From positions 4,199-68,198 of the forward strand of contig JBDLIH010000007.1 in the NCBI GenBank assembly GCA_039714975.1: a stretch of 64,000 nt of DNA. The letters are read 5' to 3'. Below, piece by piece: positions 4,801 to 19,159 of this stretch. Position 1 is the stretch's first letter, and each line of letters opens with the position of its first letter. Source of the DNA: Pseudomonadota bacterium (GTDB taxonomy: Bacteria; Pseudomonadota; Gammaproteobacteria; UBA9214). The notes under the pieces were generated by a model. It was not told the DNA's origin, ran no database searches, and saw only the letters and a list, made by a program, of their open reading frames with translations. A program made the translations under genes and the position numbers.

Positions 4801-5738
4801 CCATAACGGGCAGTGAGCAGTTTGGGCGGCAGGGTGCCGTCAAATGTCCACAGTGATTTGTGGTCCTGCACCGGCATGTCCGGATGGAACTTGATGGCGA
4901 TGCCTTCTGTCGTTCCCTCAAACCCGGGAGCGCCTACCGTGTTGTGGTAGAGCCCACCTAGACCAAATTCACCGTCATTGTAGTCGTGACCCTGCAACTG
5001 ATCACGTAAACCGCCGTTCACACGGGCGCCTGCCATCGCGCTCTGGAAATATTCTGTGGGAGTGAAATCGTCCCAGCGCTGATGCGACCAGCCCAGACCC
5101 GGCGGCCGACCTTCGGCAGGCGGATCATCCAGAGGTCTGCCGAGATAGTTTTCGATTTCCGCTGCCCAGGGATTCGTATCCTGGTCGTTGGCAAACACGG
5201 TTGGGACAGGCCAGATACTCTTGTCGAGAAAATCTTCAAGGGCCGCGCCATCCGGAGCACTCTGGGCACTCGCGGGTGCCGGTAACGACGTCCAGCCGTT
5301 TGGCTTTTTCGCGTCCAAGTCAAGTGCTTTGGTCCCGAACTCCTCGAAGCGCAAAATCTGCTGGGTAAATGCCTCGGCGCCAAACAATGGGCTGGGTGGT
5401 CCATTGCTCGGGACATTAAATACGGCCTCTTCTTCAGGCCGCTGATCTGCCGGCTGCAGCGTGTTAGACGCTTCCGCGTCTTCGGTATGGCCGGTTTCAC
5501 CGCCCTCAAAAGTACCCAGGTTCGCGTCTGGCAGGCCTTCGAGCGCACTACCATCACCATCGATCACCAGAGGAGTTAACGCTGAAGGATCTTGATTGTT
5601 GTCACCTCCGCCTCCTGGACCACCTTTGGCCGCTGCGCTGCTCGTGACGCCAAGGCACATGCTCAATAAGGCTGTCCCCAGGATTCCAGGAATGTGTGTA
5701 GTGTTACCAAAATACGGGAAATTTCTTTTTCTAGACAT
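1881..5738 (-). CDS. Giant multicopper oxidase, probable lipoprotein (~1285 aa; alternative start at 5762). CotA/bilirubin-oxidase-like core with long N- and C-terminal extensions
   Basis: All four MCO copper motifs are present in order: HTISTHEHNGH, THWFHDHM, HPIHIHFEEG, HCHNTQHEDHAM. Signal peptide with a lipobox-like LSMCLG. No Met-rich segment. About 300-aa low-complexity N-terminus and about 480-aa C-terminal extension. Confidence 0.8.
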   Translation of the reverse strand: MSRKRNFPYFGNTTHIPGILGTALLSMCLGVTSSAAAKGGPGGGGDNNQDPSALTPLVIDGDGSALEGLPDANLGTFEGGETGHTEDAEASNTLQPADQRPEEEAVFNVPSNGPPSPLFGAEAFTQQILRFEEFGTKALDLDAKKPNGWTSLPAPASAQSAPDGAALEDFLDKSIWPVPTVFANDQDTNPWAAEIENYLGRPLDDPPAEGRPPGLGWSHQRWDDFTPTEYFQSAMAGARVNGGLRDQLQGHDYNDGEFGLGGLYHNTVGAPGFEGTTEGIAIKFHPDMPVQDHKSLWTFDGTLPPKLLTARYGETVLFRHYNALPIDVAANRGFGVHTISTHEHNGHNPAESDGYANSFFFPGQFYDYRWPMTLAGSDTINTDASDPRAGSPDGAGGINQVPGDWRETMSTHWFHDHMLDFTAQNVYKGNAAMMNYYSAIDRGNEAIDDGVNLRFPSGEQLDWGNRDYDVNLLVAEKAWDDEGQLWFNPFNLMGFAGDVMTVNWLYKPYMEVRARQYRFRILNGSVSRFFKLALVDETGTPVPFYMVANDGNIMEHSVYFENGELPTQGIAERYDIIVDFSQFNAGDRLYMVNLMQQKDGVTADAAIPLADVVSGVYAAEHGDCDEDGIVGDCWVNGDPVVGKFLEFRVAEYDGEDLSMDPSEYVAGGKKMIPLNRPTEAELANALHRSFEFERQPTDEKPWVIETDGGKGFGMDPRRISAAPSKNSGGLEVWRLINSGTWSHPIHIHFEEGIILRRNGVAPPDYEQWARKDVYRLGPQPDSGDLVEIALRFREFAGTYMEHCHNTQHEDHAMLLRWDIEHPGQVKLMPTPLPTWDGVGYVDSVALPTFREGDDVGQFGPELDPLSVWIKNGVTISHFDNIRDEPIGDALDPNDNNERGGITFELEKGTHVDANGNERDVYFIMHDVSDEELSEELGIAWGGGLTGVNPAATAEASVKRKGNKLEWTFYDDLPNPVWANPACRVGDPDVNGEPCLNDANIPDVSDTNTYSPLRRVNIDGKDVVFNIIFMKWGDEDWEQNRTDRTCNSFPDSPPNTTCAYNGTAWGRYNNSGHVVEMDTDANPPYVTLKLHKSWASEHGDYLPYYIVVDTFPFPPARAMGVPYVPKHEFLGTTAVPLVQWMPGKRHVDPTFPPMPQPATADGGEYNCGSEGCGINGGGGPFGSQVGLPSYFMPEDDYSPMWHIGFAHWLEPHDRVVKGLKELRQLRKDGRVEILEWPAPPRVAEGDNTGVRVDDYDFTSANAPHVVNCPTPVTLDAAIHRARNAGK

Positions 5739-5873
5739 TGCGACCCCCCCAGGTTTTGACATGAATACACGCGCACCATTTTTTGAAGTTGCCTCATGGC
5801 CGCGATTGTTTGTTGGATTCGGGCGCTAATTTCTCACATGTAATAAATGTTGTATGTAACCCTGGATACGGGC

Positions 5874-5895: not shown

Positions 5896-6078
5896 CAAAT
5901 TTATCTCGAAAATATTTTTGTTTTTATGGAATAAACGAGTCTTCCCGGGCATCTATAAATATAAGTACGACTACCCGGGTGAATCACTTTCAGGACGGTT
6001 TATTGATGTAATTTTCACTTATATCGAAGCGGAGTTTATTTTTTGACGGTGAAAAATCAGGTTCCTGACCTACCAAAA

Positions 6079-6308: not shown

Positions 6309-6995
6309 GTGTTCAAAACCAGAACCATTGACTGGCGCCAACATTATCCACAGCTTGCGTCAATTGCAGATCCCGCCTGGATAGAGGCAATTAAGCATTT
6401 GGAGCCAATCACTGTGCCCGGCGGAACCCAGGCATATATAGCTGGTGATGAATGCCGAAACTTTCTGTTACTCCTAAAGGGCAATATTCGGGTTTATGCC
6501 TCCGGACGGGGTGGCCGTGAGATTGTCCTCTACCGTATACAGCCGGGCGAATTCTGTATTCTGTCACTCGTCTCATTCCTGCAGGGCAGCTCATTTCCTG
6601 CGAATGCGGTCACTGAAAACGAAGTGCAGGCCCTGGTCATGGACCGTAACGTCTTCATACGGGCCATGAAAAATTCACCGGCCTTGAATGACATCATGGT
6701 GATGGAACTGAGTAATCGATTTATTGAAGTCATTAACCGGGTTCAGGAGCTTGCGTTTGAACCGCTCGATATACGGATGGCCAATCTGTTATGCAGGCGG
6801 TTCCGTGAAGAACACGGGACAACGATTGAAATCACCCATAGCCAATTAGCCCAGGAACTGGGTACCACACGGGAAGTTGCAAGCCGAATGCTCAAGGACC
6901 TGGAACGCGGCAGTTACATCAGACTTTCGCGCGGTAAGGTCAGTTTGCACGACAATGAAGCAATCGGACGCATGTATCAGTTGGGAGAGCAGTAA
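6309..6995 (+). CDS. Crp/Fnr-family transcriptional regulator
   Basis: cNMP-binding-like N-terminal domain. C-terminal HTH ELAQELGTTREVASRMLKDLERGSYI. Confidence 0.8.
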   Translation: MFKTRTIDWRQHYPQLASIADPAWIEAIKHLEPITVPGGTQAYIAGDECRNFLLLLKGNIRVYASGRGGREIVLYRIQPGEFCILSLVSFLQGSSFPANAVTENEVQALVMDRNVFIRAMKNSPALNDIMVMELSNRFIEVINRVQELAFEPLDIRMANLLCRRFREEHGTTIEITHSQLAQELGTTREVASRMLKDLERGSYIRLSRGKVSLHDNEAIGRMYQLGEQ

Positions 6996-7035: not shown

Positions 7036-8355
7036 TCATTCCTCCGGTTTCCCCAGTACAACAATGTAACCCGCAACGGGCTGCCCCTTGTCCATTCGCA
7101 ACACGCTCTCCTCAAGGTACACTTCCTGCAAGCCAACGGCTTCTGCCAGTCTGATCAGATAGCCAATTGAGTGTGCATAGCGCCCGGTGGGCCTTAACAC
7201 AAAGTTGCCATCCCCCTCTTTCGCCTCGATGGAAAAGGCAAACAGCCCACCGGACCTCAACGCCGTGCCAATTGCCTCAAACACCTGATCCAGCCCGCCT
7301 ACATAAATAAAAACATCGGCAGCCAGGACAAGGTCATACGCATTGTCGTGTTTACGCAGTTCTTTTGTTATATCTGCCGTAACAAGCCTGTCATACAGCT
7401 TGCGTTGGCTTGCCCTGGCCAGCATTCCCGGCGAGAGATCCACACCCACCATGGTTCCGGCCATGCCACGAAACAGGGGGCCGCATAAACCGGTACCACA
7501 ACCGAGGTCCATCACATCCAGTTCCTGTTGTTCGGGACCGAGCAGCCGTGATACTGCCTTGTGGAGACTCCGGGGAACCTGATACCCGAGCTCCTCGACA
7601 AGGTGCTGGTTAAAATACGAAGCACACCCATCAAACAAACCGACTACATAGCCGGCCGGTGCGGATTTCGTAGTATGTCCTTCCAGTGCAGCCAGCATGT
7701 GTCGTGCACTGGTATTTTTGTTATCCAGTTGCAAGGTAAGTTCAAACAGGGCCCTGGCTTCATCCCTCCCTCCCTGCTCCATCAGCATGGTTGCCAGACT
7801 GTTACAGGCATCCGGAAAATTCGGCTCAAGGGTCAGCGCACGTTTCATTGCTGCAATGGCCTCATCCTGGCGCCCCTGCGTATGCAACAGGTCACCATAG
7901 TTGTAATGTGCCAGCGCGAAATCCGGGGCAATACTGATAGCCTGCCGGAATGCATCAAGCGCGGCATCCGGCTCCCCGGCAGCACGCAAGGCATTGCCCA
8001 GATTGTTATACGCCAGCGCGAAACCGGGGTTGATCCCGACAGCCTTCCGGAAGGCATTAATTGCCTCTTCGAAATTACCGCCAGCCTGCAGGGCGGAACC
8101 AATATTGGTGAACAGTTCAGCACTTGCCGGGCCCCGCTCGACAGCGACGGTTAAAAGCCTGATGGCTGTTTCACTATCCCCTGACTGGTGTTCAAGCAAA
8201 CCCAGCATATGGAGGGTGTCTGCATGCTGCGGTCTTGCCTTGAGAATCTTTTTGTATATCTGCCTTGCTTTCTGTAGTCTGCCGGCCCGGTGCTGTTGCA
8301 CCGCAAAGTCGAGTTTTTCCTGGATTGCGCTTCGTTTCATCCGGACTACGTTCAC
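7036..8355 (-). CDS. TPR-repeat protein fused to a class I SAM-dependent methyltransferase
   Basis: N-terminal TPR repeats (AxxYxxLGxxxxxxGxxxEA pattern, at least 5 copies). C-terminal VMDLGCGTGL SAM-binding motif. Confidence 0.7.
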   Translation of the reverse strand: MNVVRMKRSAIQEKLDFAVQQHRAGRLQKARQIYKKILKARPQHADTLHMLGLLEHQSGDSETAIRLLTVAVERGPASAELFTNIGSALQAGGNFEEAINAFRKAVGINPGFALAYNNLGNALRAAGEPDAALDAFRQAISIAPDFALAHYNYGDLLHTQGRQDEAIAAMKRALTLEPNFPDACNSLATMLMEQGGRDEARALFELTLQLDNKNTSARHMLAALEGHTTKSAPAGYVVGLFDGCASYFNQHLVEELGYQVPRSLHKAVSRLLGPEQQELDVMDLGCGTGLCGPLFRGMAGTMVGVDLSPGMLARASQRKLYDRLVTADITKELRKHDNAYDLVLAADVFIYVGGLDQVFEAIGTALRSGGLFAFSIEAKEGDGNFVLRPTGRYAHSIGYLIRLAEAVGLQEVYLEESVLRMDKGQPVAGYIVVLGKPEE

Positions 8356-10238
8356 TGGTCTCGCGCGGCACGCCGCACGCGCACCACGCCCAGGATTATA
8401 GCCAGCACAATCACCACCAGTGGCACCAGTGCGATGTTGATGATTTTCAGCCGGGTTCCCAGCAACTCGATATCCTTGCTGAGCGCATGCTGCACATTAC
8501 GCAGGTCTTTTCTTATTTGAATATGCTCAGCCCTGAATTTATTGATTTCATCCAGTTGAGCCTCGCTCATCACCGGCTCGCCCGTCTCGCTGGTCACTTC
8601 TTTCTGCAGTTCCCTGATCTTGTGCCCGGTCGCACTCAGCTTCTCCTGAAGCAGCAACTCCTTGATGCGGAATTCCTGGTCTGCAGCAGCCCTGAGATCC
8701 GCAACTCTTTCAAACGGCCTGACCGAGCGCCCGCGACTCCTGAGGTTGATGAGGTCATTACTGCCACTGAGGTTATCCAGCGCATTGATGACAAAGGTAT
8801 CGTTATCGGCACTTGGTACTGCGGCACGCCTGCCGTAAAAATCCTGAAAGCTCACCCAGAACATGTCCCGCAGCATGTCGGTATCGGCAACGATAATCAC
8901 ATTCGCCGGCTCACTTGATTCTGTCAGACGGCCTGACTCCCCGCCCCCATTGATACCCTCCGGGAAGGCGGATAGCACGTTCCCATTGACCCTGGCCGCC
9001 AGCACGAATGGTTCACCGCCAGACTGGTAGGCCTGCAGCAGTTCCTCGGGGCTGGTAAAAAACTGGATGCTGGCGGCATCGATCGGCATGGACTGGTCGC
9101 TGGTCATGACCATGGGTGTGAAACGTGTTTTCGCCCCGGCGCGCTGGCGCAGAATCCCGGCACTGCCCATCACCAGACTGTTCAGTCGGCCACTGACAAA
9201 GTCCTCGCGACTGAAATTATCCTCCCCCAGAGTCAACCAGGCGACATAGTCCACGACGCCCTTCTCCTGCCCGCCCACGGTAGACTTGATACGGGTTGCA
9301 GCCTGCCGGTCGGCGGCAACCAGGTAAGGCACCAGTTCAACCCCCCACGCCTCCATCAGCTTCCCGAGGTCCGATGCACGCGCCGAGGTGACGTACTCCT
9401 GTTCGCCCTCTGCCGGCTTCTCGATTTCCACATCGGCCTCGGCAAACGGGTCGAGGAAGGCGAGTACGCGGCCACCACCCAGCACGTACTGGTCAATGGC
9501 AAACAGTGTCTTCTCATCGGTTTGCTTCGGATGCACGATCATCAACACATCAACATTTTCAGGAATCGATTCGGGCGAATTCCCCAGGTCCTGTATATCA
9601 AACGAACGTTTTAACTGGGTCAGGATGAACCACTCCTGCGTCCTGTCGAGAAACACGTTGGCTGGACCACCATCCAGCGGCAGGGAGGAGATCAGTCCGA
9701 CCACCGGTCGTTGCGGATTCGCCAGGCCATAGACCAGCCCGGACAGTTCATACTCCAGTGACTCTTCCTGCTCCGGCTGAAAATAGGGTAGCGCGCGCCA
9801 TTTCCCGGCGGCATTGCCCCCAACCAACCCGAAATAGGCCAGACTGCCGGCCGTGTCCACAGGCGTCCCCTGCAGGCGGTAGTGCATTGCCTCGGCCTCT
9901 TCATCGGAGAATGGTTCCGGATTTTTGACCACCAGCTCGATCTGGCCGTCTGCCAGCGCGACGTATTGCTCAAGCAACTCCTTTACCTGCTGGCCATAGG
10001 TCGTGATCGCCGGCATACCACTGAACAGCTGTTCGGAGAAATAGAAACGCAGCGTGATTTTCTCATCAAGATTGCCAAGGATGTTCTGCGTACCCTCTGA
10101 CAGGGTGTACAGGCGGTTTGCGGTCATATCGAGATGCTGACCCTTGAGGAATACCCCGGCGGCCAGGTTGATAACAATCAGCAGCACCGCCACTGCGACC
10201 AGACCCGCCCCGGAAAATAATTTCTGCCCCTTCAGCAT
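8352..10238 (-). CDS. GldG-like ABC-transporter auxiliary component (large periplasmic protein with N- and C-terminal TM segments)
   Basis: Sits in an operon with an ABC-2 permease and ATPase and overlaps the preceding TPR-methyltransferase ORF by 4 bp. GldG-like size and topology, with an N-terminal TM segment (AGLVAVAVLLIVINLAAGVF) and a C-terminal one (IINIALVPLVVIVLAIILGVV). Confidence 0.6.
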   Translation of the reverse strand: MLKGQKLFSGAGLVAVAVLLIVINLAAGVFLKGQHLDMTANRLYTLSEGTQNILGNLDEKITLRFYFSEQLFSGMPAITTYGQQVKELLEQYVALADGQIELVVKNPEPFSDEEAEAMHYRLQGTPVDTAGSLAYFGLVGGNAAGKWRALPYFQPEQEESLEYELSGLVYGLANPQRPVVGLISSLPLDGGPANVFLDRTQEWFILTQLKRSFDIQDLGNSPESIPENVDVLMIVHPKQTDEKTLFAIDQYVLGGGRVLAFLDPFAEADVEIEKPAEGEQEYVTSARASDLGKLMEAWGVELVPYLVAADRQAATRIKSTVGGQEKGVVDYVAWLTLGEDNFSREDFVSGRLNSLVMGSAGILRQRAGAKTRFTPMVMTSDQSMPIDAASIQFFTSPEELLQAYQSGGEPFVLAARVNGNVLSAFPEGINGGGESGRLTESSEPANVIIVADTDMLRDMFWVSFQDFYGRRAAVPSADNDTFVINALDNLSGSNDLINLRSRGRSVRPFERVADLRAAADQEFRIKELLLQEKLSATGHKIRELQKEVTSETGEPVMSEAQLDEINKFRAEHIQIRKDLRNVQHALSKDIELLGTRLKIINIALVPLVVIVLAIILGVVRVRRAARDQ

Positions 10239-10265
10239 TACACTGCACCTGTTATCATTTTACTT

Positions 10266-11000
10266 TTAATCCGACTTCTTCATCTCGACGGCAATGATGT
10301 TTGCCAGCAGCCAGCAACCGATAAACGAAAAAAAGAACACCAGGTCACGCAGATCGATCACACCCTTTAGCATAGAATTGAAGTGGGTGGTAATACTCAT
10401 GCCACTGATAGTGTTGATCAACGGCTGCGGCAACCAGGCCTGGAACAGATCCAGTACCATCGGTGTGCCGGAAAGCATGAAGACAAAACAGATGACCACG
10501 GCAATCACAAAGGCAATCACCTGGTTGCGTGTGAAAGCCGAGACACAGGACCCGACAGCAAGATAGGCGCCCGCCATGAGATAACTGCCGATATAGCCGA
10601 CCAGGATCACAGGATTGTCCGGGTTGCCCAGGTAGTTCACCGTTAACCAGATCGGGAAAGTCAGCATCAGCGCAATACCGGTGAAGGTCCAGGCAGCGAG
10701 GAACTTGCCGGCAACCGCCTGCCAGGTGGAGATCGGCAAGGTCATTAGCAATTCGATGCTGCCTGACTTGCGCTCCTCGGCCCACAGCCGCATCGACAAG
10801 GCAGGGATAAGAAACAGGTACAGCAGTGGTTGATAGTCAAAGAAAGTCTGCAGATCGGCCTGCTCACGTTCGTACCAGCCACCCACGTAGAAGGTGAACA
10901 CGCCATTCAGTGCCAGGAAGATCACAATAAACACATAGGCTACCGGGGTGGTAAAATAGTTGCCCAGCTCACGCCGGAAGATGGCAGCCGTCGCACTCAT
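10266..11000 (-). CDS. ABC-2 family permease (GldF-like)
   Basis: Six predicted TM helices. Overlaps the ATPase gene by 4 bp. Confidence 0.7.
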   Translation of the reverse strand: MSATAAIFRRELGNYFTTPVAYVFIVIFLALNGVFTFYVGGWYEREQADLQTFFDYQPLLYLFLIPALSMRLWAEERKSGSIELLMTLPISTWQAVAGKFLAAWTFTGIALMLTFPIWLTVNYLGNPDNPVILVGYIGSYLMAGAYLAVGSCVSAFTRNQVIAFVIAVVICFVFMLSGTPMVLDLFQAWLPQPLINTISGMSITTHFNSMLKGVIDLRDLVFFFSFIGCWLLANIIAVEMKKSD

Positions 11001-11962
11001 GACAGATCACCCTCATCCACCGACCCGCCATGCGAGGTAATCCGCCGGAACACCTCGTCCAGCTGACCGGTGGCAACATAGACCTCTTCAATTTCCCAGC
11101 CCTCGTCTCGAACCAGACGGGTGACCTGCCCCACGATGGACACGCCGCCTCCGGGCATCACAATAAGGCGATTCAGTGCCTGCTCACGATTCACCCCGGC
11201 GACATTATCCAGTGCACTCAGACGTTGCTCGGCAATATCCGGAAGCCCGCCGGCGAAGGTGATAGTCACCGCATTGTGCTGTCGTGACATCGCCTCCAGT
11301 GCCTGTGGCGTGCCATTAAATACCAGCCGCCCCTGCGCAATAATCACGGCACGGTCGCAGATGGCATTCACCTCTTCCAGAATGTGCGTGGAAATGAGGA
11401 TGGCCTTGTCTCGCGCCATTTCACTGATCAACTCGCGCACTTCGTGCTTCTGGTTAGGATCCAGCCCGTCTGTGGGTTCATCCATGATTAAAATGGGAGG
11501 GTCGTGCAGAATTGCCTGCGCCAGACCCACGCGACGCTTGAAGCCCTTGGACAGGGTATCGATGGGTTTGTGGATCACACTACCCAGGTTTGCCTTCCGG
11601 ATAGATGAATGAATACGGTCCTGCTTTTCCGTTCCCCGGAAACCACGGATATCTGCAATAAAACCCAGAAACCCGGTGACGGTCATTTCACCGTAAGCCG
11701 GAGCACCTTCCGGCAGGTAACCGATACGCTGCTTGACTTGTGTTGGATACTTGCCGACATCGAGGCCATCCACCCGGATCTGCCCGCCACTTGATGCCAG
11801 GAAACCGGTGATCATTTTCATGGTGGTGGACTTGCCCGCGCCATTCGGGCCAAGAAACCCCAGCACCTCGCCCCGGTTCACATCAAAACTGACGCCATCC
11901 ACTGCAGTGAAGGCACCGAACTCCTTGCGCAGAGACTCAACTACAATTGCGGACTCCATCAT
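10997..11962 (-). CDS. ABC transporter ATP-binding protein (GldA-like)
   Basis: Walker A GPNGAGKST, signature LSKGFKRR, Walker B ILIMDEPT. Confidence 0.85.
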   Translation of the reverse strand: MMESAIVVESLRKEFGAFTAVDGVSFDVNRGEVLGFLGPNGAGKSTTMKMITGFLASSGGQIRVDGLDVGKYPTQVKQRIGYLPEGAPAYGEMTVTGFLGFIADIRGFRGTEKQDRIHSSIRKANLGSVIHKPIDTLSKGFKRRVGLAQAILHDPPILIMDEPTDGLDPNQKHEVRELISEMARDKAILISTHILEEVNAICDRAVIIAQGRLVFNGTPQALEAMSRQHNAVTITFAGGLPDIAEQRLSALDNVAGVNREQALNRLIVMPGGGVSIVGQVTRLVRDEGWEIEEVYVATGQLDEVFRRITSHGGSVDEGDLS

Positions 11963-12594
11963 TTAGTGCTATTAGCAGGCTCGGCTGGTTCCGGTACAGC
12001 GCCCTCTTCTTCCCCAGGCCAGTAGGTGGTAAACGTCTGTTCGACCAGCAGGTGGTCCTGATACCAGATCTGGAAAGTCCACTCGCCCTCCACCAGCTCA
12101 TAGTCCTCGTTGAAGGCATAGCCGTCAAAGCCAATCACCTGTCCAACGCTCAGGCGACCCTTGAAGGTACGCTCGGATCCCATGGTTGTGGACTCGTCGG
12201 GTAAGCTCATCTCGGGATGAATCAGGACCTTCCTCAATTCAACGGCCGGTTTTTTTGCCACTTCCGTTGGTAAATCCATGATGCGGTAGCGATAGGCAAA
12301 ATAGGTATCCTTTACCAGGGGAATGCGGTCGGTCTGTTCAGCCAGTTCAAGAACCGGCTTGTTGATCACCTTCCCGGTGTTTGCGGTTATTTCATCCCGT
12401 ACCCGGCCCTTTCTCTGTGCGTTATATATTCCGTGTTCGAAAACCCTGCCGTTCGGATCCTTGACGTCTGCGGGCTGCGCCCGGGCTTGTGTGTCCGCAG
12501 TGTCGGAATCCGTATTCGTTTTGCTGTCATTGTCAGTAGCCTTATCGCAGCCGGCCAGTACGGCCAAGACCAAACACGCTATCAGGTATTTCAT
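11959..12594 (-). CDS. Lipoprotein of unknown function, first gene of the ABC operon
   Basis: Start refined to MKYLIACLVLAVLAGC (lipobox LAGC). 4-bp overlap with the ATPase start. Confidence 0.55.
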   Translation of the reverse strand: MKYLIACLVLAVLAGCDKATDNDSKTNTDSDTADTQARAQPADVKDPNGRVFEHGIYNAQRKGRVRDEITANTGKVINKPVLELAEQTDRIPLVKDTYFAYRYRIMDLPTEVAKKPAVELRKVLIHPEMSLPDESTTMGSERTFKGRLSVGQVIGFDGYAFNEDYELVEGEWTFQIWYQDHLLVEQTFTTYWPGEEEGAVPEPAEPANSTK

Positions 12595-12744
12595 GGAATC
12601 CCCCTTTGTACAGAAAAACATTTTTAATGTTATACCTTAAAACAAGACAAATCAGAACAGGGAAAGTTTCCGCTTTAACCAGCAGGCCATGTACAACAAA
12701 GAAGGGGCTTGCGCCCCCTCTCCGGTATGCAGTATTACCTGCCC

Positions 12745-14139
12745 TTAGTCATCCAGTGGCAGTCCGCTCGGCACGCCGTTGACAACATCCTGGTCACTGC
12801 GAAGGTCAAGACTGGCCGGGTCCGTCAGCGCATTCAGGAAGTCGATAATGCGATCGACGTCCTCATCACTGTAGGCAAACGGGTCCAGCTCGTTGTGAGC
12901 CGCGATAAAATCAACACGATCCGGATCATCCATGGCGATATAGTTCTCCGCATCCAGGGTCGGATGGGTCGGAAGGACTGCCTGCCGGTTGCTGTTGTAG
13001 GTATAGAGTGCGTTGACCGCATCCACGTGGTGTTCGACAACTGCGCGCAGTGTATCGTAGGCACCGCCATGACCATAAGGTGCAGTCAAAGCCACATTAC
13101 GTAATGTTGGAGTGCGGAACTTGAGCGTATCTGCCGGATCTCCGGTTACCTGCTCACGACCAAAGTCTTCATGGCCACCGGTCTTGCCAGGGCTGTTACT
13201 GCCGCGGCCTGAGCCAATCTGCGGCATTGCAATAGCATGGAAAGAATTGTCGGTCTGGTACAGGCCACTGTGGCAGCTTGCACAGGCATTGCCATTACCA
13301 TCACCCTCGTAGAACAGTTCCATGCCGGCCAGGGCATTTTCACTCATGGCGCCTTCGTCGCCACGGAGCAACTGGTCGAAAGGGCTGTTATCCGCACGCC
13401 AGGTTTCACCCTCAAAAGCCGAAATGGCATTGGCGGCATGGGCATAGGTGATATCACCGGCGCTGAGTACGTCGCCGGGGAAAGCGGCTTTAAACATATC
13501 AACGTATACAGGAATGGCCTGCAGGCGTTGCGCCAGCTGCTCCCAGACACCGCCAGGATCGGCCAGGTTACCGGCACCTGCTGCATCGGCAATGGAGTTC
13601 TCACCCGGCTGACCCGCCATTTCTGTACCAGATGTCACAGGAAACATGGCCTGACATGCCAGCACGTTTTCCAGGTTGCCTGGCAGATTGTGACCAGCCG
13701 GTGTCTTGCAGCCGCTTGGGAAGCCTTCCCCACCGACGGTTGTCACACGGCCATCGTGGAACATGGTGTGGAATGAGTTGTCACCCAGATTCCATACATG
13801 CGGCGCATTGCGTGGCACACGTTCGACGACCAGATCTGCACCTGAACCCACATTACGGGTTACACCCAGACCTTTACCACCTTCACCAACGGGTAATGAA
13901 AGACCGTCACCGGTACCTGTCAAAGAGTGGTGGCAAGTACCGCAGGAAATGTTCTGATTACCACTCAGGATCTTATCGAACATCAAAACCCGACCCAATT
14001 CTACCTTTTCTGCACTCGGTGTGCGGAAGTCATAATTGGGTTCCGGCAGATCGAGACCGTTGCCCTTGGCGTTTACCGTGCCACTGATTCCCAGCATCGC
14101 GACAGCGACAGCGGCAGCAATACAGCTATTTGTTTTCAT
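12745..14139 (-). CDS. Di-heme cytochrome c peroxidase / MauG-family enzyme
   Basis: Signal peptide. Two heme c motifs, CGTCHH and CASCHSG, spaced as in the CCP/MauG family. Confidence 0.8.
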   Translation of the reverse strand: MKTNSCIAAAVAVAMLGISGTVNAKGNGLDLPEPNYDFRTPSAEKVELGRVLMFDKILSGNQNISCGTCHHSLTGTGDGLSLPVGEGGKGLGVTRNVGSGADLVVERVPRNAPHVWNLGDNSFHTMFHDGRVTTVGGEGFPSGCKTPAGHNLPGNLENVLACQAMFPVTSGTEMAGQPGENSIADAAGAGNLADPGGVWEQLAQRLQAIPVYVDMFKAAFPGDVLSAGDITYAHAANAISAFEGETWRADNSPFDQLLRGDEGAMSENALAGMELFYEGDGNGNACASCHSGLYQTDNSFHAIAMPQIGSGRGSNSPGKTGGHEDFGREQVTGDPADTLKFRTPTLRNVALTAPYGHGGAYDTLRAVVEHHVDAVNALYTYNSNRQAVLPTHPTLDAENYIAMDDPDRVDFIAAHNELDPFAYSDEDVDRIIDFLNALTDPASLDLRSDQDVVNGVPSGLPLDD

Positions 14140-14396
14140 CGTATAGTCTCCCCATTATGTTTAAGTGCACTTTGGCTTGTGTAGATATCCAGACAACAGG
14201 CAGTGCTCGTTCCCGAAACCCTGCACTGAAAAACAATACAAACGACTGACGTTTTCCAGACACCCGCCCCCTTGTCATACCTGTCGTGACAGGCTGATCT
14301 AGAATCAGTCTTTGTATTGATGAAATTCAGACCGAATTTATTCCCTGATTTTTACCCGTTGTAAAAATGGCAGGGAAGTATTTTGCAGGCGAGCAT

Positions 14397-14541: not shown

Positions 14542-15246
14542 TCAGGGATACTGGAACCAGGCTTCACGCTTGCTCGGAGACAGGCCATGACCGAGACCAT
14601 CCTGGCAGTGTGACACGATGCGCAGCATGAACGGACCGCCAATTCCTGCATCAGTTGGATTCACAATTGTTGTCGGAATCGGCTGAGCATTGGGGTTTTT
14701 TGTCTGCGCAAGCAAATGGTCGGCATGATCCATTCTGTTGAATGGATAGGAACCACCCAGTACCGGGAAATCCAGGCTGAGGTTTAACACACCTTCACCA
14801 TCGGAGTTGGTTGTGAAACCGTTTGGCTGTGTAGAGCTACCGGCTCCAACCCAGTCAGCGACCAACTGAGCCAGGCCACTACTGGGTGCCAGAGGTGTTG
14901 CACCACCACCGGTGATCGGGCTGCCACCGAAACTTGCGCCATGGGCAGCGCCTTTCATCCGCACCCACACGGTATACAGTGTGTTGGGCGCAGCGCCTCC
15001 CACTTCGATCTCTACCGTACTGTTTCCATTGGTCTGGCTGATCACAAGCGAAGCGGTTGCATCCTGCCAGCTGTTACCGCTCGGGTCTACCGGGCATTCT
15101 GCTTCCACAGTGTCACCACTGCCACTGGCGCTGCCTGCAGGCCGACGGCTGAAGTCATCCTTCAGGGTCGCGGCCTGGGCGATACCAGAAAGGGTAAGCC
15201 CGCTAACTAAAGCGGCGATTGCTGTTGTTAAAATGGAACGTTTCAT
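14542..15246 (-). CDS. Secreted protein of unknown function
   Basis: Signal peptide MKRSILTTAIAALVSGLTLSGIAQA. Gly/Thr/Ser-rich. No recognisable motif. Confidence 0.5.
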   Translation of the reverse strand: MKRSILTTAIAALVSGLTLSGIAQAATLKDDFSRRPAGSASGSGDTVEAECPVDPSGNSWQDATASLVISQTNGNSTVEIEVGGAAPNTLYTVWVRMKGAAHGASFGGSPITGGGATPLAPSSGLAQLVADWVGAGSSTQPNGFTTNSDGEGVLNLSLDFPVLGGSYPFNRMDHADHLLAQTKNPNAQPIPTTIVNPTDAGIGGPFMLRIVSHCQDGLGHGLSPSKREAWFQYP

Positions 15247-15404
15247 TAGAACTCCTCCCAATTATTGCTATTTAAAAGTAAGTATTACTACTTCTTGATA
15301 AAAAGACCTGTTATCGCCCTAAGGCTCCCCCCGGCCTTTAAACGTGGCCTCCGGCAGGCGATACGCCGCCCGCCGGAAGACAAGTGCTTGCTATTGCTAA
15401 CTGC

Positions 15405-17009
15405 TTACTGAATGAACGCCTCGTGAATGACCATCAGCATGCGCGGGTCGACGAAGTCATCGACGAGCACATTATTGCCATTGGCCCGGCCCAGGTAGGT
15501 CGCGATTGGCTGGGCACAACCACTGTTGTCAGCACCCGGGGCTTGGCTACCATCACATGGGGTCGTTTTGTCCCAGCTTTCGGCGAGATCGTTAAACTCA
15601 GGATTGCCATCAGCATCTTCCGGCAGGATCGAGTACTCGCCAACACCACCACCCGGAACGAAGCACGGAGCCGGCGGAACCCCACCCGTTACCGTGCAAC
15701 CCGGATTGAAGGCAGACGCTGCAATTAACAGGGTTTCCACATCACAGGCCGTGCCATCAACACCAGGACCACCGATGTTGTCACAGGCCACGGCGGACAT
15801 GCGGTTGGGACGGATACCGGCAATGACGTTCACACCCGGGTCCAGACCAATGGTGCGATCCGGTGAGTCACTGCCCAGATCGACAACCTGGACCTTCTGA
15901 CGGAACACGCCCGGGTTACAACCACCCGGTGTGCCGGGAATTTCTCCCTCGAGGCAGTCCCTGGAACGTTCCCGGTCGGTCACGTAGATGGTACCGTCTT
16001 CGTCATAGCCCCAGGCACGCAGCGAGTCGCGACGTGACGGATCATCGGCCGGTGTACCTGGACGCATGTCGATCCAGCGAGTAATGACAGCATTATTTTC
16101 AGGTTCGTCAAGCTCGAATGAATCGTCATCCTTATTGGAACCTACGCCAGCGACTTCATCAGAAAGACCGGCTTTCCAGTCAACCATGGCGATAGCTGCA
16201 CCGTGGAACATACTGACGCCCATGCCTTCCTCAGAGAATGCAAGGCCAGCCATACAGGTCCAGCGAGCATCTGCATCAGCAGGCTGGTTGTATTCGTCGA
16301 TTACATTCAGAGATTCCTGATCCAGCACCAGCACACGGCTGTTGGCAGAGCGAGCAGCTGTCTGGTACACCGGAGGGAAGAACAGGTTGGAGGCATTCGC
16401 TTGCGAGTCGTCACCGCTTGGGCTGACTGAATCCGAGTTCTGCGCATTGAAGAAGTTGGCATCGCAGATGGCCTGTACGATATTTCCGTTCGGCATCATC
16501 TGGGTACCCAGTGGACGCGGCAAGGAACCACGACCAGCAGGACCTGTGGGGTTACCCAGCAGTGGTCGGAAAGACACTGTGCGGATCGGGGTGCCATCAC
16601 GATGGAACTCGGTCAATGACTGCTGCGCCGCACTGGTGATGAAGGCGTGGCCGTTCAGACCACCGGACAGTACACCGGTGGGCTTGAAGGGACCGGGGCA
16701 TTCCTGTGAATCTGGACAAATCGGGCCACCAGCATTACCGGGATTGAACGGGTTGTTTACCGTGATACCGCGAGCACCGGTGACAATGTTAACTTCCAGC
16801 ACGTTACCTGGACCATTAGCGGCCGCCCATCTCGTTGCATCAGGGTTTGCAGGTGAAGGGCCGTTCATCGCATTAGCCATCATAAAGTTGGCCTCGAGAC
16901 AGGCCGGTGTACCGACGTCATCAAGACCATGTGCTGCTGCCGTGCCCACGGCTCCTGCAAGCAGGGCACCGCTCATTGCAGCAACGGTTTTTTTAAGTGA
17001 CATATTCAT
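15405..17009 (-). CDS. Secreted protein of unknown function (534 aa, Gly/Pro/Asn-rich, many Cys pairs)
   Basis: Signal peptide MNMSLKKTVAAMSGALLAGAVGTAAA. No recognisable catalytic motif. Confidence 0.5.
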   Translation of the reverse strand: MNMSLKKTVAAMSGALLAGAVGTAAAHGLDDVGTPACLEANFMMANAMNGPSPANPDATRWAAANGPGNVLEVNIVTGARGITVNNPFNPGNAGGPICPDSQECPGPFKPTGVLSGGLNGHAFITSAAQQSLTEFHRDGTPIRTVSFRPLLGNPTGPAGRGSLPRPLGTQMMPNGNIVQAICDANFFNAQNSDSVSPSGDDSQANASNLFFPPVYQTAARSANSRVLVLDQESLNVIDEYNQPADADARWTCMAGLAFSEEGMGVSMFHGAAIAMVDWKAGLSDEVAGVGSNKDDDSFELDEPENNAVITRWIDMRPGTPADDPSRRDSLRAWGYDEDGTIYVTDRERSRDCLEGEIPGTPGGCNPGVFRQKVQVVDLGSDSPDRTIGLDPGVNVIAGIRPNRMSAVACDNIGGPGVDGTACDVETLLIAASAFNPGCTVTGGVPPAPCFVPGGGVGEYSILPEDADGNPEFNDLAESWDKTTPCDGSQAPGADNSGCAQPIATYLGRANGNNVLVDDFVDPRMLMVIHEAFIQ

Positions 17010-17246
17010 ATGGTTCCTCTCCTTTTCTTATATATAAACAACGATCGTTGTGAAGAAGACACGCCTGATCAAGCACAAGACGCCCCTCTCACTAGTAGAC
17101 GCACCCGGGGATGAATTTATTCCAGTGTTTTTAATTGCGGGTTACAGCTTATTTGATGATTATCCAAATATTCAGCTGCTTACACTGTGAATTGTTTCAG
17201 GTGATATCAGGACAGGAAGATCGTGCAGGGAATCCGGTCGGTCACA

Positions 17247-17387: not shown

Positions 17388-17576
17388 ATGTTAGTACTTA
17401 CGAGGAGAGTCAATGAGACACTGATGATCGGTAATGAAGTAACGGTGACCGTGCTTGGTGTTAATGGGAACCAGGTAAGGATCGGCATTAATGCACCAAA
17501 AGAGGTGGCCGTGCATCGAGAAGAGGTTTATGAACGCATTAAGGCCCAGGTGGACCTGAAGATGGTAACGAATTAA
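17388..17576 (+). CDS. csrA: Carbon storage regulator CsrA/RsmA
   Basis: [53 protein letters not shown] is canonical CsrA. Confidence 0.9.
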
Positions 17577-17648
17577 TCCCTGGTAACCTTAACAACTCCA
17601 GTAAACACAATAAAAATAAATTTACAAAAACGAGAATAAAGTGGTTTT

Positions 17649-18227
17649 GTGAATCATCTATTATGTGGGGGCGCAGTAATGATAAAAAACATGATTTGTG
17701 CAAGCCCGGCACTGAAAAGACGGATTGCCGATTCAAGAGACCGTCTTTACCGTGTCGCATTTTCCTGGTGTGGCGATGAAATGCTTGCAGATGACCTGGT
17801 TCAGGAGGCCATTGAAACAGGCATTCGTAAAAGACGACAGCTAAGGGATGAAAGCAAACTGTTTCCATGGCTGTATCGTATTCTGAACAATGCATGGTAT
17901 GCGCATCTAAGGAAGGACAGGACACATGAAATGCTGGATGACGACATGCCCACTGAGGATATCGGGCCATGCAACATTTGTCAGGAACTTGAATTAGTCA
18001 CACGGGTGCGTGCAGCAGTTGCATCACTGCCACGAGACCAGCGACAGGTAGTCTCTCTGGTCGACCTGGGCGGGTTACCATACTGTGAAGTTGCCGAGAC
18101 ACTTGAAATACCCATTGGTACGGTTATGAGCCGGTTACACCGGGCAAGAAAGGGGTTGCTGGCCAGTATGGATGGTGCTCCTGCTGAATTAATGACAACC
18201 CGGGGAAACATACGTCTAGTGGAGTAG
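17649..18227 (+). CDS. ECF (sigma-70 family) RNA polymerase sigma factor
   Basis: Region 2 (YRVAFSWCGDEMLADDLVQEA) and region 4 (LEIPIGTVMSRLHRARKGL). Start may be the internal MIKNM. Confidence 0.8.
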   Translation: MNHLLCGGAVMIKNMICASPALKRRIADSRDRLYRVAFSWCGDEMLADDLVQEAIETGIRKRRQLRDESKLFPWLYRILNNAWYAHLRKDRTHEMLDDDMPTEDIGPCNICQELELVTRVRAAVASLPRDQRQVVSLVDLGGLPYCEVAETLEIPIGTVMSRLHRARKGLLASMDGAPAELMTTRGNIRLVE

Positions 18228-18233
18228 TGTTGT

Positions 18234-18977
18234 ATGACAAAGTCTGACGATATTCTTGATGATCAGGCGCTGGGGAGTTTCACAGACGGCCTGCTCGATG
18301 CTGCCCACAGCGAAAAGATCATCAAGGCTATGGAAGACGACCCTGAGGTACGGGAGCGTGTATATCAGCTTCGCCGTGCAAAAGACCTGATGAGACTGGG
18401 ATTTGGTGACACCAGCACACCATCAGGCAACACAGCAAAAGAAAAATTCCGGAACTGGAAAATCTTTTCACCGGAAATTGCTGCATCCATTGCAGCCCTG
18501 GCGGTCGCCTTTGGCGCCGGCATGCTTGGCCATGGGTACCATGAGGGGCCAGTGAACGCTGTTGCCGGCCAGGCTGTCGCATCAAGCCGTCAGCATCAAC
18601 CGGAAAAAGTGATTCTGCACATTTCCGAGTCAGACCCTGCAAGGTTTTCCACCATACTCGAGTACACAGAAAAGTTTCTGCAGGAACATCAGGGAGAGGG
18701 AGATCAGATTGAGGTCGTCGCACACGCAGGAGGCCTTGATCTGATGCGGTCTGATGTTTCCCCGTTCAAGGAACAGATACTCGAGATGATTTCCAAATAC
18801 AAGAACGTGCATTTCTTTGGCTGCGCCAATGCCATCCGTATGTTACAAAACAATGGCATTAACCCTGCCATAATCAGTGGCATCAACACGCACGTGACCA
18901 CATTCGAGCACATCGTCAGTCGACTGCAAACAGGCGGCTGGAAGTATATAAAGGTTGATTCGATTAAGAGTATCTAA
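18234..18977 (+). CDS. Membrane anti-sigma factor with a periplasmic DsrE/DsrF-like (COG1416, sulfur-relay fold) domain
   Basis: Begins 7 bp after the sigma factor gene. N-terminal anti-sigma-like helix region. One TM segment (IAASIAALAVAFGAGMLG). C-terminal domain KVILHISESDP...IEVVAHAGGLDLM...VHFFGCANAIRML matches the DsrE-like pattern, including the conserved Cys. Confidence 0.6.
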   Translation: MTKSDDILDDQALGSFTDGLLDAAHSEKIIKAMEDDPEVRERVYQLRRAKDLMRLGFGDTSTPSGNTAKEKFRNWKIFSPEIAASIAALAVAFGAGMLGHGYHEGPVNAVAGQAVASSRQHQPEKVILHISESDPARFSTILEYTEKFLQEHQGEGDQIEVVAHAGGLDLMRSDVSPFKEQILEMISKYKNVHFFGCANAIRMLQNNGINPAIISGINTHVTTFEHIVSRLQTGGWKYIKVDSIKSI

Positions 18978-19159
18978 CCCCCCTCGGGATTGTCTGATTG
19001 TTCAGGCATCTCCAGCCACTCCGCCTCTTCGATACCGTTCATGCGCCGGTCGGGCTGCTTTCGACGTTCTTCAAGTACCCTCTCCCCATTGCTATCCCTG
19101 AGCAGAAATGACCGTTTCCCTGCCAACTGTCGTCGATCTTCCGGTTTGCGCTGACTCAT
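18974..19159 (-). CDS. Possible small charged protein (61 aa), function unknown
   Basis: Protein-like composition. An RBS-like AGAAGGG lies upstream. Palindrome copy 3 lies about 250 bp upstream. Confidence 0.25.
   Translation of the reverse strand: MSQRKPEDRRQLAGKRSFLLRDSNGERVLEERRKQPDRRMNGIEEAEWLEMPEQSDNPEGG

Follow-up and report, generated by a model that had tools for sequence, protein, structure and literature searches.

The closest known systems to the locus described here are the ECF26 pairs RpoE1-EcfR1 and RpoE4-EcfR4 of S. meliloti, with which we grouped the presumed RpoE encoded upstream of sorAB in Starkeya novella. Thiosulfate and taurine, from which sulfite is generated, activate both RpoE1 and RpoE4 (PMC3511301). 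The ECF26 consensus comprises a −35 element GGAATA, a −10 element GT (CGTCT), and autoregulation (PMC6180224). The S. meliloti ECF26 anti-sigma factors carry a COG5662/RsiW-like periplasmic domain (PMC3511301, PMC6180224). Targets in ECF26 systems are sorT-type sulfite dehydrogenases. RseA-type anti-sigma factors combine a short non-zinc N-terminal domain, one transmembrane (TM) helix and a periplasmic domain, and they are controlled by regulated intramembrane proteolysis. Among sulfur carriers, DsrE of DsrEFH (PDB 2HY5), TusD of TusBCD (2D1P) and DsrE3A/DsrE3C are cytoplasmic members of relays that feed DsrC, sHdr or tRNA thiolation and are not fused to signaling modules. A single conserved cysteine binds sulfane sulfur or thiosulfonate in all DsrE-like proteins (PMC11094781; PMC4175335), and the characterized DsrE-type sulfur transferases are all cytoplasmic (PMC11094781). 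Two members of the MTH1491/COG1416 branch, MTH1491 (PDB 1L1S) and ST0148 (PDB 2PD2), are small soluble cytoplasmic archaeal proteins without a membrane anchor or regulatory domain, and no function demonstrated for this branch was found in the searched literature.

In the 64-kb stretch of DNA analyzed here (the window, 64,000 nucleotides), which comes from an uncultured sulfur oxidizer, the gene for a stress-type ECF sigma factor is followed by a co-transcribed gene for a putative non-zinc, single-pass anti-sigma factor with a periplasmic DsrE/COG1416-fold domain. Fold, profile and topology, together with the operon structure, support this arrangement. The sigma gene most likely starts at ATG 17679 and ends with TAG 18225-18227 (17679..18227, plus strand), encoding 182 aa. 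Its reading frame is open from GTG 17649 (17649-18227), where an earlier note on this DNA had placed the start. The ATG is preferred because the conserved promoter, with its −35 element at 17634-17640 and its −10 element at 17655-17660, spans that GTG, which falls within the spacer. The only Pfam domains in the protein are Sigma70_r2 (residues 30-91, E 5e-12) and Sigma70_r4_2 (residues 119-168, E 1e-15), with neither sigma-3 nor sigma-1, and the protein scored 76.8 bits against the NCBIfam model TIGR02937 sigma70-ECF (cut-off 42.9). Having sigma-2 and sigma-4 alone, it belongs to the ECF (group 4) sigma-70 factors, the identity that the earlier note had given it. Homologs are 171-183 aa long. 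Among plasmid-borne sigma factors, the best relatives come from alpha- and beta-proteobacteria (35-42% identity). A gene at ~79.0-79.4 kb of S. meliloti pSymA, probably rpoE6, has 40% identity over 141 aa, and one of the plasmid-borne relatives is divergent from a gene for an S8 protease, the arrangement reported for rpoE6-type ECF26.

The sigma/anti-sigma operon is preceded by an ECF26-type promoter at 17634..17660 (plus strand, PWM score 23.0) composed of GAATAAA (17634-17640), a 14-nt spacer and CATCTA (17655-17660). A second copy lies on the minus strand at 17096..17122, 87 nt upstream of a beta-propeller gene. It reads GGAATAAA-N14-CGTCTA, with GAATAAA at 17122-17116 and CGTCTA at 17101-17096, and has the best PWM score in the window (23.9). 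The motif conserved across loci is GAATAAA-N14-CATCTA/CGTCTA: of 57 non-identical loci, 54 had GAATAA ahead of the sigma gene and 39 had the full GAATAW-N15-YRTCT there. Four copies scoring ≥16 were found in the window against 0.05 expected from shuffled windows. Three kinds of gene lie downstream of the motif, namely the sigma gene, the beta-propeller gene (in the window) and an operon for a soluble DsrE paralog and a porin (in other genomes). It occurred upstream of 10/17 propeller homologs and 15/21 secreted DsrE-porin operons, and of none of 75 control neighbor genes. A strong orphan copy at 5925..5962 (plus strand, PWM score 23.2) is followed by ~340 nt with no ORF longer than 54 aa and then by a Crp/Fnr-type regulator gene (6309-6995); no Rfam family was found there, and the Rfam scan of the window returned two tRNAs alone. 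A weaker promoter-like site at 14310..14347 (minus strand, PWM score 16.7; GGAATAAA ... CATCAA) lies upstream of a MauG/CCP-like gene and does not fit the stricter NNTCT pattern. No motif was found upstream of four MauG-like homologs in other loci, and regulon membership of this site and its gene is uncertain.

Promoters of S. meliloti ECF26 factors match the same motif, for example GCGAATAAA-N14-CGTCTA, and the 14-nt spacing is identical to that of the SMc01022 promoter (PMC6180224). The family-derived PWM left the S. meliloti and Paracoccus loci unscored; it is over-fitted to the spacer of the family, and the ECF26 comparison therefore rests on the published promoter sequences. The motif upstream of both the sigma gene and the propeller gene corresponds to the ECF26 promoter and its autoregulation, and an autoregulated ECF26-like switch is the best explanation for the sigma/anti-sigma pair.

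A gap of 6 nt separates the sigma stop codon from the next ORF, which starts at 18234 and encodes a membrane protein of 247 aa; both ORFs of this tandem are present as previously described. The sigma gene was directly upstream of a gene of this type, and co-oriented with it, in 63 of 70 loci, the exceptions being truncated contigs. Residues 1-59 (18234..18410, plus strand) form a cytoplasmic anti-sigma-like domain of three helices (10-17, 23-35 and 37-57; pLDDT ~90 in the AF2 model). The HxxxCxxC zinc motif is absent, no cysteine occurs in residues 1-196, and the N-terminal alignment of the family conserves neither Cys nor His. The N-terminus thus lacks a zinc motif, as had been claimed, and the protein falls outside the zinc-binding anti-sigma (ZAS) subfamily. 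Conservation across the family extends over the first 60 residues, which carry an LxxFxDGxLD motif, which is typical of helix 1 in anti-sigma domains. Sub-threshold matches were obtained to NCBIfam 'antisigma' NF052375 (25 of 43 family members), PRK13920 'putative anti-sigmaE' (13/43) and Pfam zf-HC2 (9/43), and anti-sigma HMMs were the NCBIfam families matched most often across members. Alignment with RseA-N by hhalign gave E 0.0017 at a probability of 15%, pairing LSALMDGE with LGSFTDGL. A profile search of the PDB with the N-terminus returned no anti-sigma structure, only spurious helical-repeat matches. Taken from these weak HMM matches and the gene order, an anti-sigma role in which the N-terminus binds the sigma factor is suggested.

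One 19-residue stretch with a Kyte-Doolittle hydropathy above 1.5 was found in the protein, and it coincides with a single TM helix at residues 77-100 (18462..18533, plus strand). Across 260 family members, Lys and Arg residues averaged 3.5 in the 15 residues before this helix and 0.7 after it, and 95% of members had more of them on the N-terminal side. This asymmetry implies an N-in/C-out orientation and upholds the single-pass topology of the earlier note. By the positive-inside rule, and given the need for a cytoplasmic sigma-binding N-terminus, the C-terminal domain is predicted to be periplasmic. The layout is that of RseA-type proteins, and helix 1 aligns weakly with theirs, but the periplasmic domain of RseA is unrelated to the one found here, and its partners DegS, RseB and RseP were not found nearby. 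No site-1 protease gene is conserved near the sigma/anti-sigma loci.

The periplasmic domain occupies residues 122-243 (18597..18962, plus strand); its folded part measures ~120 aa rather than the ~150 aa first proposed. It has the three-layer alpha/beta fold of the DsrE/DsrF/DsrH-like superfamily, in the order beta1-alpha1-beta2-alpha2-beta3-alpha3-beta4-alpha4-beta5. An hmmsearch of the family profile against the MTH1491/COG1416 branch gave E 3.3e-10, with profile positions 124-239 covering residues 5-112 of a 113-residue chain. The aligned positions H...G..R...S...C...W-x-Y are common to both, and C197 aligns with the cysteine of MTH1491 and ST0148. In the window, the corresponding plus-strand codons are those of H129 (18618-18620), G167 (18732-18734), R172 (18747-18749), S176 (18759-18761), C197 (18822-18824), W236 (18939-18941) and Y238 (18945-18947). 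The closest relatives lie in the uncharacterized MTH1491/COG1416 branch. Neither Pfam nor NCBIfam gave a match at threshold to the 247-aa protein or its halves. The window protein stays below the gathering score of PF02635, which 5 of 43 members match weakly (best E 0.04), and the link to this family is transitive: two of three secreted paralogs pass it (40.6 and 29.4 bits vs. 22.7) and align to the sensor domain. Neither hhalign of the sensor domain against TusD nor hhalign of the secreted-paralog alignment against DsrE was significant, and canonical DsrE/TusD membership at the sequence level was dropped for that reason. Likeness to canonical DsrE and TusD is detectable by structure alone and not by sequence profile, and sequence-level similarity to DsrE3A/DsrE3C is likewise undetectable. 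The match to DsrE/TusD/COG1416 put forward in the earlier note stands for the fold and for the COG1416/MTH1491 profile and falls away for hhalign to TusD, Pfam and NCBIfam. Many family members are named 'intracellular sulfur oxidation DsrE/DsrF family protein' by JGI.

The window protein has no cysteine other than C197. Of 260 family members, 259 keep it, in line with the conserved cysteine named in the earlier note, and its equivalent is the sole periplasmic cysteine in 251 of the 260. In the AF2 secondary structure it directly follows the strand at 192-196 and precedes the helix at 198-206, an order that would put it at the end of beta-3, in the position of DsrE Cys78. One conserved active-site cysteine at the C-terminal end of beta-3 is a feature of DsrE, TusD and DsrE3 that the domain shares, whereas its predicted periplasmic location departs from the cytoplasmic one of DsrE-type sulfur transferases. 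C197 and H129 are both nearly invariant and sit at the C-terminal ends of adjacent strands. From the fold topology, H129, G167, R172 and S176 may cluster as a pocket around C197. The window protein thus differs from the S. meliloti ECF26 anti-sigma factors, having a DsrE fold with a single cysteine in place of the COG5662/RsiW-like domain.

Next to many sigma/anti-sigma pairs a secreted 'DsrE family protein' (Blr3520-like) is encoded. It is a homolog of the sensor domain (probability 98.9% and E 2e-17 by hhalign, with the cysteine aligned), is also predicted to be periplasmic and is apparently under the same ECF promoter as the sigma gene. It differs in being soluble, with a signal peptide in place of the anti-sigma domain and TM helix, and most of the secreted paralogs that keep the cysteine have Gln at the position of H129. 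At 90% identity, this uncharacterized secreted family forms more than 4153 clusters. The porin co-regulated with it is of the Porin_4/anion-selective Porin_O_P type. The soluble paralog is absent from the 64-kb window, and many other loci have none nearby.

In the window, the predicted target is the gene for a secreted beta-propeller protein of 534 aa with nine invariant cysteines (15405..17009, minus strand). The systems described here differ from ECF26 systems in their targets, which are a beta-propeller or a secreted DsrE protein and porin rather than sorT-type sulfite dehydrogenases. The propeller protein has no match in Pfam or NCBIfam, and phmmer against the PDB also found nothing. Its AF2 model is all-beta (pTM 0.81), and Foldseek gave nothing beyond generic propellers, N2O reductase and BtuG among them (TM 0.35-0.40). 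The gene adjoins the sigma/anti-sigma pair in 19 loci, and its homologs, including those of Candidatus Thiodiazotropha, are all annotated 'hypothetical protein'. Downstream and co-oriented, probably in one transcription unit with it, is the gene for a secreted 239-aa protein (14542..15261, minus strand), which has no family match in Pfam or NCBIfam and none by phmmer against the PDB; a homolog follows the propeller gene in 8-9 loci. Further co-oriented genes at 8352..14139 (minus strand, identified by Pfam) encode a MauG/CCP-like di-heme protein (12745-14139), a DUF3859 protein (11959-12621), an ABC ATPase (10997-11962), an ABC-2 permease (10266-11000) and a GldG-like auxiliary protein (8352-10238), and they may belong to the ECF regulon. 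A DUF3859 gene was found together with the propeller gene in 12-13 loci, and ABC genes were found with it in 5-8. The porin, MauG-like, SoxB-like/5'-nucleotidase, DUF3859 and 239-aa genes were rejected as direct targets, the strict promoter pattern not being immediately upstream of them; they may still be expressed from operons in which they lie downstream. The predicted targets included none of the Sox, Dsr, SQR and sulfite-dehydrogenase genes, and no tusA, dsrC or rhodanese gene occurs in the conserved neighborhood of the sigma/anti-sigma loci. Elsewhere in the window are copper genes, encoding an SCO1-PCuAC-cytochrome c fusion and a 1293-aa protein with Cu-oxidase_2 and DUF7482.

The fused anti-sigma/DsrE-fold architecture comprises 369 clusters at 50% identity and has no family name. 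Nearly all of its 64 genome matches fall in gammaproteobacterial sulfur-oxidizer lineages (among them Thiogranum, Thiohalobacter, Acidiferrobacterales, Thiotrichaceae, Ectothiorhodospiraceae and Chromatiaceae), and its hosts are marine-sediment, vent and symbiont Gammaproteobacteria. This restriction may reflect lineage rather than function. Four genome matches that seemed to be 'domain-only' (L052, L066, L069 and L070) are masked, frameshifted or fragmentary copies and no separate architecture. Literature searches on anti-sigma with DsrE, COG1416 or MTH1491 and on ECF with persulfide found no publication describing the architecture. The ECF classification paper mentions neither DsrE nor sulfur, and an apparent 'DsrE' match in PMC3511301 was 'DsRed'.

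The best-supported reading, made by analogy with sulfur carriers, is that C197 would accept sulfur and that the domain would sense reactive sulfur. It draws on the homology to sulfur carriers, the cysteine at the end of beta-3 and the restriction to sulfur-oxidizer lineages. It is strengthened by the ECF26-type promoter, given that ECF26 members respond to sulfite and thiosulfate, and by the same sigma factor apparently driving a soluble periplasmic DsrE paralog and a porin in many genomes. Against it stand the cytoplasmic location of the characterized DsrE-type sulfur transferases, the uncharacterized state of the nearest branch, the likeness to DsrE and TusD at the level of structure alone, and a predicted set of targets made up of functionally unassigned proteins with no known sulfur enzyme among them. 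With gene order, domain folds, topology, cysteine conservation and the promoter motif and its positions computed as above, we infer the binding of the sigma factor by the N-terminus, the chemical modification of C197, the identity of the signal and the mechanism of release. In the resting state, the sigma factor would be kept at the membrane by the N-terminal helices of the anti-sigma protein. The signal arriving in the periplasm would be a reactive sulfur species, probably an anionic one, candidates being the sulfane sulfur of polysulfide or persulfide and thiosulfonate donors such as tetrathionate and thiosulfate. It would modify C197 in the pocket of H129, G167, R172 and S176, and this modification would alter the conformation or oligomeric state of the DsrE-fold domain. 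Release of the sigma factor is assumed to occur most likely by regulated proteolysis in the disordered linker (residues ~100-121). Free sigma factor would then transcribe from GAATAAA-N14-CRTCTA promoters its own operon, the propeller operon and, elsewhere, the DsrE paralog-porin operon. An autoregulated ECF26-like switch whose membrane anti-sigma factor takes its input from a periplasmic DsrE-superfamily domain with a reactive C197 is thus proposed tentatively, as a plausible account that falls somewhat short of being probable.

A lone conserved cysteine would also suit an oxidant or thiol-redox sensor, in which peroxide, hypohalite or another oxidant turns it to a sulfenate or an inter-protomer disulfide and so releases the sigma factor. 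DsrE-fold proteins are obligate oligomers, and a single exposed cysteine in an oligomer-forming fold fits such intermolecular disulfide or sulfenate chemistry. The gene neighborhoods offer further points in its favor: the gene for the MauG/cytochrome c peroxidase-like di-heme protein lies in the co-oriented cluster with its weak promoter copy, in loci L005, L006 and L012 the sigma gene has a divergently oriented AhpC/TSA-redoxin gene beside it, and catalase and cytochrome b561 are associated with ECF26 subgroup 1 (PMC7826278). However, the MauG-like gene adjoins the pair in few loci and lacks the strict promoter pattern, and redox sensing would leave unexplained both the His/Arg/Ser pocket common to MTH1491 and the co-regulated soluble DsrE paralog and porin; we regard it as unlikely. 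That paralog could instead be what is sensed, the tethered domain hetero-oligomerizing with it, or binding the propeller, and reporting the abundance or loading of its partner as feedback. DsrE, DsrF and DsrH do hetero-oligomerize with one another. On such an account any small molecule would be sensed indirectly only. The strict conservation of C197 and the pocket in the tethered domain suggests a chemistry of its own, however, and the window and many of the other neighborhoods searched have no soluble paralog, which leaves partner sensing quite unlikely.

The near-invariance of both the cysteine and the histidine, at the ends of adjacent strands, and the abundance of copper genes in the window would be expected if C197 and H129 bound a thiophilic metal, e.g., Cu(I), Zn or Cd, in an envelope metal-stress switch. 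Yet a pair of ligands is sparse for metal coordination, most secreted paralogs that retain the cysteine carry Gln in place of H129, the structural homologs returned have no reported metal site, and the copper genes are not conserved beside the pair in other loci, so that a metal sensor is highly improbable. Least of all do we expect no sensor at all, that is, a periplasmic DsrE-type enzyme or carrier anchored in the membrane and linked to the sigma factor by nothing more than a common operon, or an anti-sigma factor whose outer domain serves as a stability or proteolysis handle. The sub-threshold HMM matches behind the anti-sigma assignment and the PDB profile search that gave no anti-sigma structure would allow it, but the gene is universally and tightly paired with the sigma gene (6 nt in the window), the first 60 residues of the protein combine conservation and confidently predicted helices with the LxxFxDGxLD motif, and the NCBIfam families matched most often across members are anti-sigma HMMs.

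The reactive-sulfur reading can be extended, in a form that we consider rather unlikely, to a periplasmic sulfur relay. The porin would admit anionic sulfur species, the soluble paralog would be persulfidated or thiosulfonated and would pass its sulfur to C197 or compete with it, and the covalent mark on C197 would release the sigma factor. If true, this relay would rank as the first DsrE sulfur carrier system in the periplasm and as the first case of an ECF switch run by cysteine persulfidation or thiosulfonation; to our knowledge, the persulfide sensors known so far are cytoplasmic repressors. Perception of reduced sulfur outside the cytoplasm is poorly understood in sulfur oxidizers, and the family gives a testable and compact candidate for it, consisting of one domain, one cysteine and one defined promoter. 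It would also give the first functional handle on the MTH1491/COG1416 branch and its abundant secreted 'DsrE family protein' relatives, as well as on the conserved secreted beta-propeller family, and the promoter and anti-sigma pair could be used as a sulfur-responsive orthogonal switch.

An ORF for an ECF sigma factor occupies positions 17649-18227 of the window, with Sigma70_r2 and Sigma70_r4_2 domains and a passing match to the NCBIfam ECF superfamily model, and the 247-aa anti-sigma candidate (18234-18977) lies directly 3' of it. Both genes that the earlier note placed at 17649-18977 are present and adjacent; the gap between the sigma stop codon and the next start is 6 nt. The sigma gene was directly 5' of the anti-sigma gene in 63 of 70 loci. 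Its likely start codon is ATG 17679, since GTG 17649 falls within the promoter spacer; this gives 182 aa, and homologues are 171-183 aa long. The −35 box of the sigma promoter lies 58 nt past the end of a CsrA gene (17388-17576, plus strand), an arrangement not kept in other loci (in the related locus L002, a CsrA gene is ~7 kb off). A convergent 61-aa ORF (18974-19159, minus strand) overlaps the anti-sigma gene by 4 nt at the stop codon. Its product has a high content of Arg, Glu, and Asp and two DRR motifs, is 49% identical to a homologue in L020 and 70% identical to one in L052, and matches no family.

The 247-aa protein alone matched no Pfam or NCBIfam model. AlphaFold2, using an alignment of 43 sequences, predicted three confident helices (residues 10-57), a low-confidence stretch including helix 80-95, and a confident alpha/beta domain (residues 125-240). 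A single hydrophobic segment spans residues 77-100; in 260 family members, the 15 residues preceding it hold 3.5 K+R on average vs. 0.7 after, which indicates a cytoplasmic N-terminus with the C-terminal domain in the periplasm, the single-helix topology claimed previously. The N-terminus contains no Cys and no conserved His, so the protein is not a zinc-binding anti-sigma, again as proposed. It carries an LxxFxDGxLD motif, and sub-threshold matches to NCBIfam 'antisigma' NF052375, PRK13920, and Pfam zf-HC2 were found in 25, 13, and 9 of 43 family members, respectively; hhalign against RseA-N gave an E of 0.0017 with low probability. Given these recurrent matches and the sigma gene immediately upstream in most loci, a putative anti-sigma is a reasonable reading of the sequence.

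The family profile matched MTH1491 (1L1S) over the whole C-terminal domain (E 3e-10) and also matched ST0148. Foldseek returned the same two structures (TM 0.86 and 0.81), followed by two deposited 'DsrE-like' structures. Fold comparison scored MTH1491 at 15.7, ST0148 at 14.3, YchN and BT1422 at 12.3, SSO1126 and Swol_2425 at 11.4, DsrE at 11.2, DsrF at 10.6, DsrH at 10.5, TusC at 9.6, and TusB at 9.1, before a fall to 8.2 for unrelated Rossmann-like folds. Because DsrE-superfamily structures rank above those, the DsrE fold suggested in the earlier note is confirmed for the predicted model; sequence-level similarity to verified canonical DsrE or TusD references was not detectable. Conservation of the Cys held as well, with C197 kept in 259 of 260 full-length members and the sole periplasmic Cys in 251. 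H129 (97%), G167 (100%), R172 (95%), S176 (92%), N191 (91%), W236 (99%), and Y238 (100%) are also conserved in these members, and the conserved residues align with the same residues in MTH1491. In the model, C197 follows strand 192-196 at the head of helix 198-206, a position topologically equal to Cys78 of DsrE. DsrE-like proteins have one conserved Cys in common, which binds persulfide or thiosulfonate sulfur (PMC11094781; PMC4175335); those studied were all cytoplasmic, whereas the domain described here is predicted to be periplasmic.

Family members are 228-256 aa long. An indexed search returned 147 clusters at 90% identity, many named 'intracellular sulfur oxidation DsrE/DsrF family protein' by JGI, and an exhaustive search of representatives at 50% identity returned 369 with E ≤ 1e-30 and 1571 with E ≤ 1e-3. 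Automatic annotation calls these proteins DsrE/DsrF-like or hypothetical. Scanning a single genome for each species yielded 64 loci, nearly all in gammaproteobacterial MAGs of sulfur-oxidizer lineages (Thiogranum, Thiohalobacter/Thiohalobacterales, Acidiferrobacterales, Thiotrichaceae, Ectothiorhodospiraceae, Chromatiaceae, and Arenicellales). One gammaproteobacterial-type locus, with an anti-sigma 62% identical to that of the window, sits on a 428-kb contig (L009, CAVYIJ010000001.1) of a MAG labelled 'uncultured Halobacteria archaeon', probably a binning or labelling error.

GAATAA precedes the sigma gene in 54 of 57 non-identical loci, and 39 fit GAATAW-N15-YRTCT at a fixed distance to the start codon. 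In the window, the boxes GAATAAA (17634-17640) and CATCTA (17655-17660) on the plus strand were identified by sequence reading and by a weight matrix built from the related loci. In many loci (e.g., L041 2842-2879 and L046 1511-1548), only 7-17 nt separate the end of the −10 box from the sigma start codon, so that much of the family would have a sigma/anti-sigma mRNA with no leader or almost none. The matrix gave four window matches at a score ≥16, vs. 0.05 expected from shuffles. It places GGAATAAA-N14-CGTCTA (17089-17126, minus strand) 87 nt upstream of a secreted beta-propeller gene and a weaker promoter-like site (14310-14347, minus strand) upstream of a MauG-like gene. A strong orphan copy, GGAATAAA-N14-CATCTA (5925-5962, plus strand; score 23.2), has no ORF >54 aa after it before a Crp/Fnr-type regulator gene (6309-6995) ~340 nt away, and Rfam returned nothing there; a long leader, a small RNA, or a small protein might be expressed from it. 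Divergent from this copy is a secreted 1293-aa protein with Cu-oxidase_2 and DUF7482 (1881-5762, minus strand), part of a copper-related stretch (383-5762, minus strand) that also encodes a SCO1/SenC-cytochrome c-PCuAC fusion (383-1732, minus strand).

The family motif matches mapped ECF26 promoters of S. meliloti, including that of SMc01022, GCGAATAAA-N14-CGTCTA; the group consensus is GGAATA at −35 and GT at −10 (PMC6180224). The window sigma factor, ~40% identical to a pSymA sigma gene, may be ECF26-like. Thiosulfate and taurine activate the ECF26 factors RpoE1 and RpoE4 via sulfite; these factors control a sulfite dehydrogenase, and the periplasmic domain of their anti-sigmas is COG5662/RsiW-like (PMC3511301), where the window anti-sigma has the DsrE-fold domain.

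De novo clustering of neighboring ORFs revealed two recurrent partners. The propeller gene (~530-aa family; 534 aa at window positions 15405-17009, minus strand) adjoins the sigma/anti-sigma pair in 19 loci and is often followed, as in the window, by genes for a ~235-aa protein, a DUF3859 protein, and an ABC-2 transporter with a GldG-like subunit. The 534-aa protein has a 100% identical counterpart in an NCBI MAG of a 'Pseudomonadota bacterium' (locus tag ABFS24_03525), so the source of the window is an uncultured bacterium, and it was modeled as a beta-propeller (pTM 0.81) with structural matches to generic propellers alone (e.g., N2O reductase and BtuG, TM 0.35-0.40). It had no family assignment, its homologues all being 'hypothetical', and the family has nine invariant Cys and is conserved in many sulfur-oxidizing Gammaproteobacteria, including Candidatus Thiodiazotropha symbionts. 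The second partner, in ~21 loci, is an operon of a secreted stand-alone DsrE-like protein (145-190 aa, with signal peptide and conserved Cys) and, after it, a Porin_4/Porin_O_P-type porin, adjoining the pair on the minus strand in, for example, L010 (10968-12829), L033 (6973-9175), and L063 (5058-6866). Two of three stand-alone proteins tested passed the Pfam DsrE threshold, and they aligned to the periplasmic domain, Cys on Cys, with 98.9% probability. This secreted family, named 'DsrE family protein' or 'Blr3520 homolog', has >4153 clusters at 90% identity and is absent from the 64-kb window. A simpler promoter pattern (background 0.03 per 450 nt) precedes propeller genes in 10 of 17 cases and secreted DsrE genes in 15 of 21, vs. 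0 of 75 other neighboring genes. The propeller is the predicted main target in the window genome.

Other features were seen around these loci. In L002, 35 residues encoded just 3' of a CCP_MauG gene (11632-11733, plus strand) are 60% identical to the anti-sigma C-terminal end (residues 213-247) and could be what is left of a second DsrE-like gene. In five loci (L008, L020, L028, L030, and L052), a gene within a few kb 3' of the anti-sigma gene encodes a ~500-790-aa protein (e.g., L008 5999-8089) that by eye resembles a metallophosphoesterase or 5'-nucleotidase (SoxB-like); the ECF promoter pattern was absent directly upstream.

In the best-supported model, whose functional core we infer, an ECF26-like switch would carry a DsrE-fold domain in place of the usual anti-sigma periplasmic domain, signals would be perceived at that domain's invariant lone Cys, C197, and the sigma factor is assumed to be released through regulated proteolysis, as in RseA-type anti-sigmas. 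We give this model, with a reactive or anionic sulfur species as the signal, somewhat less than an even chance. Such a species is the most likely signal because of the superfamily chemistry, the ECF26 sulfur link, the co-regulated soluble DsrE paralogue and anion-type porin, and the hosts. The predicted targets do not reveal the signal, and no Sox, Dsr, SQR, or sulfite dehydrogenase genes occur in the conserved neighborhood of the pair. The same Cys could instead sense oxidants, which we consider unlikely, and sensing by hetero-oligomerization with the soluble paralogue or the propeller seems a little more doubtful still. Metal binding by the Cys together with His is improbable, and a 247-aa protein with no sensing role at all very much so.

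The ECF sigma factor, the single-pass anti-sigma, and the DsrE fold are of known kinds, and no description of an architecture uniting them was found in the searchable literature. Their combination, with a predicted periplasmic DsrE-type domain and apparent co-regulation with a secreted paralogue, appears to be new, and the system is specific, widespread, and open to direct test.
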